Origin: Limnochordia bacterium
Lineage (GTDB): Bacteria; Bacillota; Limnochordia; DTU080; RSA5
NCBI GenBank assembly: GCA_041686855.1
Contig: JAWLDA010000005.1
Location: 203,222-267,221, forward strand
Length of the DNA: 64,000 bases
Direction of reading: 5' to 3'
Shown here: positions 29,897-35,630 of the stretch, piece by piece
Numbering within the stretch: position 1 is the first letter of the stretch
Layout: every line of letters starts with the position of its first letter
Notes under the pieces: model-generated
The model's input: only the letters and a program-made list of their open reading frames with translations
Told to the model about the DNA's origin: nothing
Database searches by the model: none
Position numbers and translations under genes: made by a program

Positions 29897-30730
29897 GTGG
29901 CGATCGAGGCGTACGGTCCTGGCCACCTGGCGCTCATCCGCTTCCTCTCCGCTTCGGCGCTCTTTGGAGTGTACGCTCTCGTGACGCGGATGCCGATGCC
30001 GGCTCGGCGGGACTGGCACCGCTTCGCCTTGCTGGGCTTCTGCGCGGTGACGATTTATCACACGGCGCTGAATTTCGGCGAGCAAACGGTTCCGGCAGGG
30101 ACGGCGAGCCTCATCATCGCGACGGTCCCGGTCTTCACGGCGATCTTCTCCCGGATCTTTTTAGAAGAACGACTGACGGGCGTGGCGTGGGCCGGCCTCT
30201 TTTGGAGCCTCTTTGGCATCGCGGTGATGACTTTTGGCGGAGAGCGAGAGGTCGGTTTCACGCTCGGAGTGTTTTATGTCGCTGTGGCCGCTGTGTCGGG
30301 CGCGATTTATACGGTCTTCGTCAAACCGCTTCTGGCTCGTTACCCCCCGGTAAACAGCATGGCCTACGTGACATGGGCCGGGACTCTGCCACTGTTTCTC
30401 TTCGCTCCGGGCTTCCTTCAGACCCTGAGCGCAGCTCCGATCGAATCGACCCTAATCGGCGTGTACATCGGCGTCTTTCCTGCTGGGATCGCTTACGCCT
30501 CGTGGAGCATCGCCCTCTCACGCCTCCCGGTGAGCCGAGTCGCACCGTTTATGTATTTGGTCTCCCCCCTGGCCATTCTGTGGGGGTGGCTGTGGGCGGG
30601 TGAGGCGCCTACAGCCATGACATTGGTAGGCGGCTTTATTGCCCTCTCCGGGGTGCTCGTCGTGCAGCTCTGGGGGCGCCGTCCGCTGAGCGCCCCCTCC
30701 ACGAGCCGCAGCGCCAATGTGAGGGCCTAG
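29897..30730 (+). CDS. EamA/DMT-family transporter
   Basis: Ten TM helices with an EamA repeat. The frame is open from 29813 and preceded by a strong AGGAGGGGAG, but no canonical start precedes GTG 29897, so the true N-terminus may be longer. Confidence 0.6.
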   Translation: MAIEAYGPGHLALIRFLSASALFGVYALVTRMPMPARRDWHRFALLGFCAVTIYHTALNFGEQTVPAGTASLIIATVPVFTAIFSRIFLEERLTGVAWAGLFWSLFGIAVMTFGGEREVGFTLGVFYVAVAAVSGAIYTVFVKPLLARYPPVNSMAYVTWAGTLPLFLFAPGFLQTLSAAPIESTLIGVYIGVFPAGIAYASWSIALSRLPVSRVAPFMYLVSPLAILWGWLWAGEAPTAMTLVGGFIALSGVLVVQLWGRRPLSAPSTSRSANVRA

Positions 30731-30744
30731 GGACTCAAGCAATT

Positions 30745-30812
30745 CAGTGACTCGAGCGGTCTAGCGAATCTAGCGAATCAAGCGATCCAGTGACTCAAGT
30801 GGTCTAGCGAAT
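30745..30812. repeat. 25-bp direct repeat x2 (AGTGACTCRAGYGGTCTAGCGAATC) with short internal repeats
   Basis: Read directly from the sequence. It lies at the 3' end of the convergent DMT and D-TA genes. Confidence 0.75.
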
Positions 30813-31877
30813 CATCCCCCGAGCGGCGACGGGCCAAACCTTCTCCACGTTGGCACCTCGAACACCGATCAACTCGTCGTGAAGATTGGTGACGACACAG
30901 GTGTGGTTGGGGATGATACGAATCACTTCGCCCACCTCCGGCTTGCGCTCCCCTTCCGGGAAGCGGACGTACCCGTGCTCCTCGTTGAGGCGGTAGATGA
31001 CGGCGTCGGGGTACTCGACGATGCGCCCGTGGCCCTTGAGGCCCAGCGTGTCCGCAGAGAGGCTCTTGGAGCCGGCGTCGATGATCGCTCGATCAGCCGT
31101 CGGCCGACTCACCACAGTGGCGCGAATGTGCATGGCACAGTCATCCCACGTAGCGGCTCCTTTAGCGACACACGAGCGGTCGTAAAAGATGTAGGTACCG
31201 GCCCGGTGCTCCGTCGCTCCTGGGATCTGAGGGAGCAGCGAGACGGCCGGCGTGCCCCCGGTGCTGACGATCTGGGCATTCAATCCGACACGATCTAATG
31301 CACGGTACGTCTCTTGTAGAAAACTGGCGGTCGCGTCGGTGATCGGGTAGGTCATCAGCCCCGCGAAACGCAAGTTGGGTAGGCCATCGACAAATTTGCC
31401 CAACTCAGCGGTCTCCTCCGGGGTTTGCGTCCCGTTGCGACCACTCCCGGTGTCACACTCCACGAGGACCGGCAACTCTTCTGCAGTGTCGCGCATGCTT
31501 TCCGACAGCCCTCTAGCTACATGAGCGTTGTCACAGAGGGTTAGTAGCCGCCCGCGTGTCGCCGCCTCCCGGAGGCGGTCCAGCTTTGCGGCGCCCAAGA
31601 TATTATAGGTAAGAAAGATGTCCCCCAAGCCCGCTGCCTGCATGACGGCCACTTCGCCGAGCTTTTGGCAGGCAATCCCTTGTGCGCCCGCCGCCACCTG
31701 CATGTGAGCGATCTCCGGAATCTTGTGCGTTTTGATATGAGGGCGGAGCGCGACGCCTGCGTTGTCACAAAGCCGCTGCATGCGAGCAATGTTGGCTTCC
31801 ATGACGTCGAGATCGATGGTGACGACCGGGGTGTCGTTTAAGTCAACGCTATCGCTTATGTGGGTTTTGGCATTCAC
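30804..31877 (-). CDS. PLP-dependent D-TA-family enzyme (paralog of 783..1907)
   Basis: The HIKTHK motif and the same domain order as the first copy. Confidence 0.7.
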   Translation of the reverse strand: MNAKTHISDSVDLNDTPVVTIDLDVMEANIARMQRLCDNAGVALRPHIKTHKIPEIAHMQVAAGAQGIACQKLGEVAVMQAAGLGDIFLTYNILGAAKLDRLREAATRGRLLTLCDNAHVARGLSESMRDTAEELPVLVECDTGSGRNGTQTPEETAELGKFVDGLPNLRFAGLMTYPITDATASFLQETYRALDRVGLNAQIVSTGGTPAVSLLPQIPGATEHRAGTYIFYDRSCVAKGAATWDDCAMHIRATVVSRPTADRAIIDAGSKSLSADTLGLKGHGRIVEYPDAVIYRLNEEHGYVRFPEGERKPEVGEVIRIIPNHTCVVTNLHDELIGVRGANVEKVWPVAARGMIR

Positions 31878-32052: not shown

Positions 32053-32126
32053 AGAGTCGAGAGTATTAGTCTAGGACTCGAGAGTCTAAGGTCAATAGTC
32101 CACGGTCAATAGTCTACGGTCTATGG
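32053..32126. repeat. Short tandem repeats including 14-bp GGTCAATAGTCYAC x2 plus a partial copy
   Basis: Read directly from the sequence. Confidence 0.75.
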
Positions 32127-32193: not shown

Positions 32194-33231
32194 CTACGGA
32201 GCGCTTTGGGCCGCTTTTATGTAGCGCTGGCTACAGTGCTTCAGGTACTGGATCGTCTGCTTAAATCCCCGCAATACCCTCATTGGCAGCTTGTCTCCAA
32301 TTTTCCTACGCAAATTAGTGAGCGAAAGGTCCTCGGCGTGGACGACGACAAGAGCGATCTTTTTGTCTTTACAGATCTGCCGCTTGAGGGCGTCGCGTTT
32401 TCGTTGTGCGATCACTTCCTGTTTTGAGAAGCGTCCCGTCGCGACGTAATGCTGCCTTCCGTTGAACTCGAACGCCACGCGATCCACTGGGTAGAAACGG
32501 TCGAGCTCCATCCGCTCTCCAGTGGATGGATTCTCAAGGAAATTCGGTCTAGCGCCGTCCTCGCACTCCTGTGTGTCGACAATTAGTGACAGGCACGCCC
32601 GCAAAAGCCCTTCCCCACTGTACTTCGACTCCCCCAGGCCCCTTGCGACCTCCGCTTTATACGCTTGGTCGGCGTGTTGAAGTCGAAACCAGAGGGACGC
32701 GCGCCGGTTCTCTTGCCTGATCGCGATCCAGTGTGCCGCGGCGAGGGCGCGAATGGCACGCTTCACGGTCTTTATGTGTAAACCGGTCTTCTTACTGAAT
32801 TCAGCCCACTTGAAGAAGCCCGTCAAGCCATTGAATTCAGACGTCGCCTGCAGCAGCCCGTAACACAGAAGCGTCTGCGGGCGCACTGTATGGGACGCTC
32901 GGATCAAGTCCACCGGAATCTTTACGACAGATGGGTTGTCCAGGGCGGGAAAGCCAATTCGCCAGCGCCGCTTCCCGGAAGAACGCTGACGATAGGAGAC
33001 GAGCCAACCCGAGGCTACTGCACTTTTTAAGGCCACATACACGGTGGAACGGGCCAGGCCGGTGCGCTTTGCGAGACGATCCGGCATGTGAGACCGTTGT
33101 CGTTTGTGCGTTGCGTCAAAGCGCAACCTGATCCAGAGCAACTTCGCAGCGGGCGTCAACGACCGAGAGAGCAATAGGGCGAGTGGAACGTCAACCGTCC
33201 GCACCTGCAACCGCAACTGCACCCGTGCCAC
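32194..33231 (-). CDS. Protein with two winged-HTH domains and a C-terminal DUF559 / Vsr-like (PD-(D/E)xK-type) endonuclease domain
   Basis: Two HTH-like segments: LAKRTGLARSTVYVALKSAVASGWL and FSKKTGLHIKTVKRAIRALAAAHWI. The C-terminal LDRFYPVDRVAFEFNGRQHY...RKRDALK...VVVHAED region matches the DUF559/Vsr pattern. Confidence 0.5.
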   Translation of the reverse strand: MARVQLRLQVRTVDVPLALLLSRSLTPAAKLLWIRLRFDATHKRQRSHMPDRLAKRTGLARSTVYVALKSAVASGWLVSYRQRSSGKRRWRIGFPALDNPSVVKIPVDLIRASHTVRPQTLLCYGLLQATSEFNGLTGFFKWAEFSKKTGLHIKTVKRAIRALAAAHWIAIRQENRRASLWFRLQHADQAYKAEVARGLGESKYSGEGLLRACLSLIVDTQECEDGARPNFLENPSTGERMELDRFYPVDRVAFEFNGRQHYVATGRFSKQEVIAQRKRDALKRQICKDKKIALVVVHAEDLSLTNLRRKIGDKLPMRVLRGFKQTIQYLKHCSQRYIKAAQSAP

Positions 33232-33424
33232 CTCCTCGTCGATCTACTCGTTGGCCTTCGGGATGAATCGCTTGGTGATGGTGCGCTCGAACCGCTGTAG
33301 ATAACCTCCGCCACTTCTTGCACAAACATTTGTTCGCCAGGCCAATAGAACCCTTCCCGTGACGCGATCCGAGGGTGATGTAACACAGAAAACTTAATAG
33401 CAAAGCGGCTTCGACGTCCCAGTG

Positions 33425-34230
33425 GTCCGAAAAATGCCCGGTACATCCTCGGCGTGGTCCGGTGGAGGCTTCTGTCCACAGTGCTGAGCAGAAAAGTCCT
33501 GCTCAACGAGGGTGACCTCGCGAACCGAAGCAATGGATGGCGGAGTTGGGCCCCTAGCGGGAACTTCTCGGACAGCGAAGGTACGGTCGTCGGGCCAACT
33601 GCCGTCGGTCTCAGATTTGCCGCTGCAACGGGCGCCGACCCACAGGCGTCCGAAAAATGCCCGGTACTTACTCAGCGTGGTCCGATGGAGGCTTCTGTCC
33701 ACAGTGCTGAGCAGAAAAGTCCTGCTCAACGAGGGTGACCTCGCGAACCGAAGCAATGGATGGCGGAGTTGGGCCCCTAGCGGGCACTTTTCGGACAGCG
33801 AAGGTACGGTCGTCGGGCCAACTGCCGTCGGTCTCAGATTTGCCGCTGCAACGGGCGCCGACCCACGGGCGTCCGACACACCGGCGTTTGACTCAGCGGG
33901 TGTCCGACCCCTACGGGCGCCGACCCACGGGCGTCCGAAAAATGCCCGGTACATCCTCAGCGTGGTCCGATGGAGGCTTCTGTCCACAGTGTTGAGCAGA
34001 AAAGGCCTGCTCAACGAGGGTGACCTCGCGAACCGAAACAATGGATGGCGGAGTTGGGCCCTTAGCGGGCACTTTTCGGACAGCGAAGGTACGGTCGTCG
34101 GGCCAACTGCCGTCGGTCTCAGATTTGCCGCTGCAACGGGCGCCGACCCAGCGAGTGTCCGAGCCGCGGGTGTCCGAACCCTACGGGCGCCGACCCAGCG
34201 GGCGTCCGAGCCTCGGGCGTCCGAGAAAGA
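33425..34230. repeat. Three tandem copies (223, 285 and about 298 bp) of a roughly 90%-identical unit, apparently non-coding; each unit carries a conserved 7-8 bp hairpin
   Basis: Units begin with GTCCGAAAAATGCCCGGTAC at 33425, 33648 and 33933. Unit spacings are not multiples of 3 and reading frames differ between units. The internal hairpin is TGAGCAG-N7-CTGCTCA. Short GGGYGTCCGA motifs recur at the unit junctions. Confidence 0.85.
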
Positions 34231-34540
34231 ACCGCATAAGTGCGCCAGAGGCGCAACGTATTTATTCAAACGAAATCTGCGTGCTAAACCCCCGATTCTG
34301 TTGGGGAAAAGTGGAACGTTAAACAAAGTGTGCTCGCCTTAAGCAAGCTGCAATCGCTGATCGGACGAAGCCGGGGCACGCGCTGTGAAACGGAATGACA
34401 CGGCACAAAGCGGAGGCTACGTGGTGTGGATCGAAACTCGTGCCAACAAACGTGGATATGTCTCAACCTCCGCATGGGTGTGGAGCTTGGGCGGACTTGG
34501 GACTGTACGTGGGTACGATGCCGCACTCCATTTGGTGGTC

Positions 34541-34622
34541 TTGGAAGGCTTGGAGGATTTAAGGGAAATGGAGGATTTAAGGGGATTGGAGGACTTAAGG
34601 GAATTGGAGGTCTTGAGGTACG
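34541..34622. repeat. 18-bp tandem repeat x4 (TGGAGGATTTAAGGGAAA, degenerate)
   Basis: Read directly from the sequence. Confidence 0.8.
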
Positions 34623-34769
34623 AATGAATTAATCGTGGGACGGCCGCAATGAAGGCCGAAGCCTCACCTGTGCGAGCGAGGATCTCCGGCCTCCGTTCCA
34701 CCACGCTTTCGCAGTTACGCTATTCGGTTAGAGCGCAATGAGCGCTACTGTAGCAACAGCCCATCGACG

Positions 34770-34855
34770 CAACACCGCAACACCGCAACATCGCCCCAAC
34801 CCCACATCGCCCCAACCCCACATCGCCCCAACCCCACACCGCTACAACCCACAAC
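34770..34855. repeat. 8/16-bp tandem repeats (CAACACCG x2; CCCCAACCCCACATCG x3)
   Basis: Read directly from the sequence. Confidence 0.8.
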
Positions 34856-34856
34856 G

Positions 34857-35630
34857 TTACGGCGCCACGACGTACCAGACTTCGCCGACGCCTTGGCCGG
34901 TCGTGTCGCCCGGCTTCTCGTCGTTGATCCACCCGTACAGCGGCATGCCGTTATAGGCGATCTGGCGTGACCCGTCCTCGCGGGTGATTACGCTGATCGC
35001 ATCGGGGTCGACGCCCTCACCAGCCACCGGCTCACCATAGGCAATCAGCGTTGGTGGCCAGTTGCCCGCGCATCGGCCGGAGCAGTTGCTGACGCCTTCT
35101 TCGTCCCGGGTGTACAAATAAAGGGTCATTCCGGTACCGTCAATGAGGTATTTGCCGAGATTCGCATTCTCTGCCACGCGCAGGGTGGGGCTCGGGTTAA
35201 CGACGTACCACACATCACCCACACCTTGGCCGGTGGTATCTCCGGGTTTGGCGTCCCGTACCCAGTAGTAGAGGGGAATGCCGTTGTAGGTGACGTGCAG
35301 CGTGCCGTCGTCGGCGCGCTTCACCACGTCGAGCTCACCTGCGAGGCCGTCGGGCAGCATGAGCTGGTCCTCAGACTCAACGGTAAGCGCGGGCCAGTTG
35401 GCCAGACAGCGACCGCTACAGTTGCTGACGCCCGGTTGATCCGGGGTGTACAAATAGAGCGTGAGGTCGTCGGGACCGATCAAGTAGTGGCCCAACTCGG
35501 GTGAGTAAGCCACCTTGACTGTGGGCTCCGTCGCGCTGGCAAGGGCCGGCAGGGCCAACAGAACGAGGGTTGCTACTGCTAAGAGGAGAACTCTGGCACG
35601 GGTGGTTCGCAATCCAATCCGGTATCTCAT
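34857..35630 (-). CDS. Secreted protein with two internal repeats (secreted repeat of unknown function, COG4315-like)
   Basis: A signal peptide, then two repeats of about 110 aa each containing SNCSGRC, WP and DTTGQGVG motifs. ATG at 35630 follows GGAGGCG. The ORF extension to 35702 was rejected. Confidence 0.6.
   Translation of the reverse strand: MRYRIGLRTTRARVLLLAVATLVLLALPALASATEPTVKVAYSPELGHYLIGPDDLTLYLYTPDQPGVSNCSGRCLANWPALTVESEDQLMLPDGLAGELDVVKRADDGTLHVTYNGIPLYYWVRDAKPGDTTGQGVGDVWYVVNPSPTLRVAENANLGKYLIDGTGMTLYLYTRDEEGVSNCSGRCAGNWPPTLIAYGEPVAGEGVDPDAISVITREDGSRQIAYNGMPLYGWINDEKPGDTTGQGVGEVWYVVAP

Follow-up and report, generated by a model that had tools for sequence, protein, structure and literature searches.

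The array at positions 33425 to 34230 of the window (the whole stretch of 64,000 nucleotides analyzed here) can be read, with slightly better than even confidence, as a non-coding module of double-stranded DNA, acting in cis and present in three tandem copies, which would be the cognate site of the product of the adjacent gene. The three repeats are real and non-coding. The link between the protein and the elements is the most likely interpretation of their co-occurrence, from which we infer function. Each module would comprise two inverted copies of a 13-19-bp recognition motif (GGTCCGAAAAGTGC), a spacer of fixed length and essentially free sequence, and a central oriented YTAGCWGG-N3-TTT. 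The features of the array and its surroundings, in window coordinates, are as follows.

32194..33231, minus strand: gene for the predicted partner of the elements, encoding a protein of 342-345 amino acids; the start in the public record is 33222.
33324..33335, minus strand: LexA-type palindrome GAACAAATGTTT (GAAC-N4-GTTC class), between array and gene, about 100 nt upstream of the gene start.
33374..33384, minus strand: motif GTTACATCACC; most close-subfamily loci have it 47-49 nt ahead of the LexA-type box.
33425..33573, minus strand: element copy 1, nearest the gene, 149 bp including the outer G/C; arms 33425-33444 and 33554-33573, central AGCAGG 33498-33503 on the minus strand.
33574..33647: spacer 1, 74 bp, 68% G+C.
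33648..33796, minus strand: element copy 2; arms 33648-33666 and 33778-33796, central AGCAGG 33721-33726.
33797..33932: spacer 2, 136 bp, made of the 74-bp spacer and a 62-bp insertion of 15-nt GGGYGTCCGA-type mini-repeats.
33851-33938: mini-repeats of spacer 2 as delimited by TRF, period 15, 5.8 copies.
33933..34081, minus strand: element copy 3, farthest from the gene; arms 33933-33951 and 34063-34081, central AGCAGG 34006-34011.
34082..34230: spacer 3, where 15-nt GTCCGA mini-repeats form another run (TRF 34137-34225).
34245..34292, minus strand: 48-nt block distal to the array, 81% identical to positions 63-110 of L122, upstream of a paralogue.

The three units lie head to tail and start at 33425, 33648 and 33933, each opening with GTCCGAAAAATGCCCGGTAC, a 20-mer that had no matches in shuffles of the window. 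These starts had been reported in a first-pass annotation and were recovered here, as were the unit lengths of 223, 285 and about 298 bp (TRF and unit alignment); TRF gave periods of 223 and 285 with 96% matches. The differences in length are due to 15-nt GGGYGTCCGA-type mini-repeats at the unit junctions, which form the 62-bp insertion already described in unit 2 and likewise the tail of unit 3. The reported identity of roughly 90% between units holds when indels are counted (about 90-93%), but the 218-bp core common to the three units is 96-97% identical, with 10 variable columns in the alignment. Every unit also contains a 19-20-nt imperfect inverted repeat, GTCCGAAAAATGCCCGGTA ... TAGCGGGCACTTTTCGGAC, with 111 nt between the arms, which closes an element of 147-149 bp (in copy 1 the 5' arm reads, in gene sense and with two changes, GTCCGAGAAGTTC). 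This inverted-arm element was overlooked in the first-pass annotation and is the feature kept in related loci.

No further copies of the unit or the element were found in the 64-kb window outside 33425-34081. The 13-mer arm, allowing up to two mismatches, occurs in the window as the six arms and one other site, which we take as chance, and a scan of genome contigs with the 16-mer GTCCGAAAARTGCCCG returned matches at chance level only. One set of these matches corresponded to an unrelated A+T-rich dispersed repeat of an Alloprevotella MAG. The non-coding DNA around the array is rich in other short tandem repeats. The 48-nt block beyond the array overlaps a plus-strand terminator-like hairpin (34241-34255), and its counterpart in L122 is at the matching position upstream of the paralogue in the same organism.

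From unit to unit, the long ORFs on both strands of the array pass through homologous sequence in different frames. The non-coding nature of the repeat had been argued from spacings that are not multiples of three and from look-alike ORFs each in a different phase. This is correct in part: the 223-bp spacing shifts the frame and the ORF starting at 33512 differs from the others, but 285 is a multiple of three, so the ORFs starting at 33735 and 34020 have a common phase. The conclusion itself stands, since the array ORFs carry no Pfam domain and a search for a frame-preserving protein with homologues returned none, the 310-aa minus-strand ORF having no relative except itself among 5.8 billion proteins. 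This ORF is called a gene in a public annotation. The gene call would fit a protein-coding repeat, and the end of a contig in a second public assembly of the same organism (GCA_041685055.1), which stops at window position 33264, about 160 bp before the array, would fit an assembly artefact. Both explanations are extremely improbable, taking together the frames, the lack of homologues and Pfam domains, and the homologous arrays present in independent assemblies; moreover, unit-specific substitutions and indels and different junctions distinguish the units, which argues against a simple assembly duplication.

The array did not correspond to a known class of RNA or repeat locus, in agreement with the first-pass annotation, which had set aside CRISPR, tRNA, rRNA and known REP/BIME-like elements. 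ARAGORN identified neither a tRNA nor a tmRNA gene, and Rfam gave no match in the whole window at gathering thresholds and none over 33200-34900 at E <= 1. A CRISPR array was rejected on the grounds that the entire 223-285-bp unit is repeated, spacers included, instead of the 25-50-nt repeats with unique spacers expected of such arrays. No Cas domains were found among the eight array-flanking genes and eight large ORFs elsewhere in the window. Retrons, bridge RNAs, omega RNAs and TIGR arrays were also rejected, there being no adjacent gene for a reverse transcriptase, a recombinase, TnpB/IscB or a Nop-domain protein.

To place the element in its family we ran an iterated nhmmer search, seeded with one unit of the window, over 80 metagenomic loci of the gene family. 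Matches were found only beside family genes, either upstream and in gene sense (L122-L125, L128, L130, L132) or downstream and inverted (L133/L181, L135/L179, L136), and a few elements are 1.4-2.5 kb away from the gene. The paralogue P0004 (L122) has a single diverged upstream copy, 68-72% identical. A scan for TCCGRRA...TYYCGGA pairs returned 18 pairs in 157 kb of gene flanks versus 4 in 211 kb elsewhere, and in the 64-kb window it returned the three units alone.

The comparison of 17 elements revealed that three stretches of sequence are kept: the 5' arm GTCCGAAAAGTGC, its inverted copy GCACTTTTCGGAC and the central oriented YTAGCWGG-N3-TTT. The element is 147-149 bp long, bounded by inverted 13-19-nt arms (GTCCGAAAAGTGC) and with an oriented AGCWGG at its center. 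AGCWGG lies 69-70 nt from the 5' arm in 14 of 16 elements but 79-80 nt from it in the L125/L128 group, and the distance between the center and the 3' end is 77-79 nt for most elements and 67-68 nt for L122, L126 and L181b. Element length shifts by 10-11 bp, about one turn of the DNA helix, in four element groups, in a sample of about 16 elements from roughly 13 independent loci. The interior is only about 37% identical between loci (range, 30-48%), and outside the element the spacers are anywhere between 42 and 306 nt long. An interior that is near-random in sequence but constant in length, or altered by about one helical turn, is expected for proteins bound on one face of double-stranded DNA and is not expected of an RNA fold. 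This geometry is our most informative result, and it points to a double-stranded DNA-protein module rather than to an RNA.

One competing explanation of the inverted arms is that the array consists of tandem small-RNA genes, as the first-pass annotation had also proposed, or of a structured leader. Each unit would then give a minus-strand RNA of about 150 nt with a 16-19-bp closing stem, working on or with the nuclease as a guide RNA, a scaffold or an RNA antitoxin. Some of the folding results are in line with this. The long terminal stem folds well (z of whole elements down to −5.5 on the sense strand), the interiors have a slightly lower mean z relative to shuffles in gene sense (−1.0) than in antisense (−0.37), the arm mismatches of the window and L122 are G·U on the gene-sense strand, and the upstream elements are oriented like the gene. 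Nevertheless, the paired fraction of arm cells (85.5%) is close to that of shuffles (84.1%), 38 of 500 of which reach the observed value, and the covariation score, reached by 64 of 500 shuffles, is not significant; the conservation of structure with covariation that had been suggested as a check on related loci is therefore not above shuffles. Across loci, wobble pairs show no strand bias (20 G·U versus 16-19 A·C mismatches), the G·U pairs of the window and L122 being offset by A·C at other loci. RNAalifold keeps the terminal stem only, and the interior has no conserved structure yet a fixed length in steps of 10-11 nt. Even at E <= 1 there was no Rfam match, and some elements are downstream of the gene and convergent with it. 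Sigma-70 promoter and terminator scans gave counts at or below chance with a consensus that may not be the host's, and no promoter- or terminator-like site was found inside the units by a consensus that may not suit this phylum. The arms are conserved as sequence motifs and not as a covarying stem, and we consider an RNA reading of the array unlikely.

The hairpin on which the first-pass annotation had focused gives a similar picture. The inverted repeat TGAGCAG-N7-CTGCTCA is found in every unit and the C-to-T change of unit 3 does extend its stem to 8 bp; the smaller GTGGA-N8-TCCAC hairpin is exact in unit 1, but units 2 and 3 have ATGGA. The TGAGCAG/CTGCTCA repeat overlaps the conserved central motif. 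Of this repeat only the 5' half (AGCWGG) is kept in relatives, and the complete repeat is confined to the three recent copies, so its reading as a maintained RNA or DNA structure was not upheld. A central hairpin forms in the window element, L132b and L143, and weakly in L132a, and is absent in the other 11 of 15 elements. Since most relatives lack it, the C-to-T change is not evidence of a maintained structure. The recurrence of this hairpin and the folding bias of the interiors are weak counter-signals to the DNA reading, and a single-stranded form, of RNA or of DNA, keeps some probability.

The product of the adjacent gene is, in a structural model with a pLDDT of 93, a protein with two winged helices like those of Rep, pi and RepE, followed by a C-terminal Vsr-like nuclease domain. 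The two winged-helix domains superpose on pi and RepE, and the N terminus matches replication initiation proteins in PHROG (2e-10), where the C-terminal domain is common to phage homing-endonuclease families. Nine positions of the predicted nuclease domain (D, E, N, G, Q, H, R, D and K) are invariant among 44 homologues. Comparison of the protein with solved structures, PADLOC and NCBIfam profiles returned generic winged helices only, and it showed no Pfam DUF559 or AbiEi match at threshold and no transposase domain. In fold and in PHROG matches the protein is similar to pi, RepE and phage initiators, with no match in sequence at the family level and with the nuclease domain as an addition. 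The family is unannotated and comprises about 314 clusters at 50% identity (E <= 1e-30). There are several paralogues per genome, here P0002 on the same 296,947-bp contig and P0004 in the same MAG, and these genes are 75-80% identical. The window has ordinary chromosomal content, such as polA, ccmF and a catalase gene, and no plasmid, phage or integrase genes were found in the context of the array. The nearest named relatives of a flanking gene are from Armatimonadota MAGs. A contig reached through the neighboring D-Ser-dehydratase-like gene, as a route to an empty site, lacked conserved synteny and was uninformative.

The LexA-type box that separates the array from the gene has a counterpart in all 21 close-subfamily loci whose upstream sequence was long enough, the background being 0.013 per 281 nt. 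A GTTACA-type motif is found in most of these 21 loci, and GTTACATCACC may be part of the promoter. Firmicutes and Actinobacteria have GAAC-N4-GTTC as their LexA motif, and variants of it occur in Chloroflexi (PMC4951493). The conservation of a palindrome of this class makes SOS control of the adjacent gene a reasonable inference.

Tandem copies are not particular to the window. Three copies of the element with a period of about 293 bp are found in L125, two with a period of about 300 bp in L128, and two each in L136 and L132. Distant subfamilies (35-40% protein identity) have arrays of their own (3.3 × 224 bp in L197, 2.7 × 208 bp in L176 and 3.1 × 211 bp in L152), each with its own palindromic A-tract motif, and other distant loci show clusters of A-tract palindromes in alternating orientation. 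Tandem amplification beside the gene is thus a recurring trait of the family, not a one-off event. Some of these arrays are old, with 71-82% identity between units, and are still kept. At the same time, many family loci with ample flanks have no array and some no recognizable element, and the position of the element relative to the gene is variable (downstream in L133, L135 and L136). A young satellite duplication, another option of the first-pass annotation, therefore describes the age of the triplication, which is fairly recent, but not the recurrence of arrays beside the gene family at many independent loci.

These data bear on whether the triplication itself matters. The element could be functional and its triplication neutral and fairly recent, leaving the array as a by-product of recombination or repair with no role of its own. 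The 96-97% identity of the units fits this scenario, and so do the copy number and period, which vary by locus, with one copy or none at many of them, and the short tandem repeats that fill the non-coding DNA nearby. Furthermore, 3 of the 10 variable positions of the array fall in arms, which are no better conserved than the rest of the unit, so there is no sign of selection on each extra copy. Set against this are the independent arrays across subfamilies with only 35-40% protein identity and the persistence of some old ones (71-82% identity between units), and we give a purely neutral array a low probability.

It is more improbable still that the element is a mobile one of the MITE or REPIN type, bounded by terminal inverted repeats and moved by the neighboring nuclease acting like a transposase. 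Terminal inverted repeats of 13-19 bp, the uniform length, the few elements at 1.4-2.5 kb from the gene and the several paralogues per genome would all be expected of such an element, and the two elements of L136 are 95% identical although their spacers are unrelated. However, the 64-kb window has no other copies, inspection of the flanks revealed no target-site duplications, the paralogues (75-80% identical) are unlike recently active insertion sequences, and the elements are not placed on both sides of the gene in the way of transposon ends.

Among the three options of the first-pass annotation, an iteron-like protein-binding array serving the adjacent winged-helix nuclease protein is the one that fits best, and the double-stranded DNA module that we favor could work as follows. 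The winged helices of the adjacent protein would bind both arms, and the DNA between them would be bent or wrapped so that the arms and the center come to lie on one face. The complex may act at the center, which would either be bent or be nicked by the nuclease domain; its AGCWGG core recalls the CWGG core of the Vsr/Dcm site. DNA damage would probably turn the gene on via the LexA-type box. The triplication may have arisen by unequal exchange or by repair-associated duplication. It would have raised the number of sites from two to six, in addition to about eight GTCCGA partial sites, and the extra sites could titrate the protein or concentrate it beside its own promoter.

A more specific and rather doubtful proposal, which we regard as possible, is that the gene and the elements form an undescribed DNA-damage-inducible system for site-specific DNA processing, present in at least two phyla. 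The Rep-like tandem winged-helix protein would dock on the two helically phased inverted arms, and the Vsr-like domain would nick or cut at the central AGCWGG. Break repair would then generate and homogenize the arrays, which would amount to programmed local amplification or rearrangement.

The resemblance of the protein to initiators also raises the question of whether the array is an origin of the iteron type, at which this Rep-like protein would start the replication of an integrated or cryptic replicon. The tandem winged-helix fold similar to that of pi and RepE, the replication-initiator matches in PHROG, the position of the repeats next to the gene and the iteron-like 15-nt GTCCGA mini-repeats are what one would expect of such an origin. 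We nonetheless judge it very improbable, since the units measure 223-285 bp instead of 17-22 bp and their sites form inverted pairs with a separation of 147 bp. There is also no A+T-rich unwinding region (the lowest 60-nt window has 40% G+C and is in an unrelated 18-mer repeat), and the context is ordinary chromosome with several paralogues.

If the module reading is correct, it links together for the first time an unannotated family with initiator-like and Vsr-fold domains, probable LexA control and a 147-bp module. The cognate module of this family would keep its geometry rather than its sequence and would tend to amplify into tandem arrays of 200-300 bp. This would account for one class of long orphan tandem repeats, which break short-read assemblies and are annotated as hypothetical proteins, and would offer a tractable system in which to study helical phasing in a bacterial nucleoprotein complex. 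There is also a practical lesson: a few recent copies that share a long stem with G·U pairs do not count as evidence for RNA.

A literature search for this combination of gene and elements found no description of it, and several known systems share some of its parts. ToxIN (type III toxin-antitoxin) also has tandem non-coding repeats directly upstream of a nuclease gene and on the same strand. The ToxI units, however, are of about 36 nt and act as RNA, whereas the units described here are of 223-285 bp and show no covariation, and the protein is predicted to be a DNA-binding, Vsr-like one and not a ToxN/AbiQ RNase, with no PADLOC match of note. REP/REPIN-RAYT systems have short inverted pairs of uniform length, sometimes in tandem and tied to one flanking gene. 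In our case the partner is not an HUH/Y1 RAYT but a predicted tandem winged-helix protein with a Vsr-like nuclease, and the elements are not dispersed within the 64-kb window and have a 147-bp spacing quantized in helical turns. The wHTH-DUF559 (Vsr-like) proteins and AbiEi-type autoregulators likewise combine a winged-helix DNA-binding module with a Vsr-fold domain, as a fusion or as a pair, and inverted repeats near the promoter are the likely binding sites (PMC7319586). The protein described here resembles them in these respects, but its predicted sites are 147 bp apart and amplified into arrays, and it has no DUF559 or AbiEi Pfam match at threshold.

The iterons and operators of tandem winged-helix initiators, such as pi (R6K), RepE (F) and RepA (pPS10), share more features with the array. 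The two winged helices superpose on those of pi and RepE, and predicted cognate motifs are clustered next to their own gene in direct and inverted orientation. Iterons of these systems are of about 20 bp, whereas the unit of the array is 223-285 bp and contains a phased inverted pair spanning 147 bp and a central motif; in addition, the array differs in the Vsr-like domain of its partner and in having neither an A+T-rich unwinding region nor a plasmid context. The element system is therefore closest in kind to the iteron and operator clusters of winged-helix initiators, and is set apart from them by the size of its units, its phased inverted geometry, the fused predicted nuclease and its chromosomal context with multiple paralogues.

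The nuclease gene adjoining the array of three tandem units has two motifs on its promoter side:

Window 33324-33335, minus strand: LexA-type palindrome GAACAAATGTTT, upstream of the gene start.
Window 33374-33384, minus strand: GTTACATCACC motif, 47-49 nt upstream of the LexA-type palindrome.

All 21 loci of the close subfamily (21/21) have the palindrome, and most also have the GTTACA-type motif, a pattern of sequence conservation which suggests that the nuclease gene is under SOS control. The non-coding 1.6-kb stretch at 33232-34856 is repeat-prone along its whole length, and other short-period repeats occur around the locus:

Window 30727-30813: 43-mer tandem repeat, 2 copies.
Window 32090-32121: 14-mer tandem repeat, 2.3 copies.
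Window 34550-34610: 18-mer tandem repeat, 3.4 copies.
Window 34772-34850: 16-mer tandem repeat, 3.9 copies.

Similar repeats, of 15-16 nt, flank the elements of two other loci of the gene family (L181 and L125). For the 296,947-bp contig, a public annotation calls the 310-aa ORF spanning the array (window 33394-34326, minus strand) as a gene (protein P0107); no homologues of it were found, and the ORF is almost certainly spurious, a product of high G+C content.

In a second assembly of the same organism (L121; GCA_041685055.1, contig JAWLGM010000143.1), the contig ends at window position 33264, ~160 bp before the array, and many metagenomic loci of the family also break off only a few hundred bases away from the gene. 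Arrays beside these nuclease genes are probably undercounted by short-read data. The 16-mer GTCCGAAAAATGCCCG was also found within a dispersed repeat of the rumen Alloprevotella MAG RGIG7039, located near many contig ends of this one MAG (loci L008, L009, L016, L019, L032, L046, L057, L065, and L069). That repeat is A+T-rich and unrelated to the array, and the match appears to be a coincidence.

Older arrays, with 77-82% identity between units, were found in L125 (275-870) and L128 (20-620). The promoter-proximal motif GTTACATC is also present in every unit of both, and the amplified unit there therefore takes in part of the regulatory region of the gene. The two elements of a further family locus, L136 (1474-1634 and 1809-1969, minus strand), are 95% identical across the element and ~10-25 nt of flank, while the sequence in between is unrelated, suggesting, instead of a simple tandem duplication, either gene conversion or copying at the level of the element. 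Distant subfamilies have their own repeat types immediately upstream of the gene:

L197, 2544-3277: four 55-nt hairpins with GTCAAGAAAGAGCAC arms and a 224-bp period.
L184, 3235-3425: four 15-mers in alternating orientation.
L152, 3389-3428: 21-nt iteron-like repeats.
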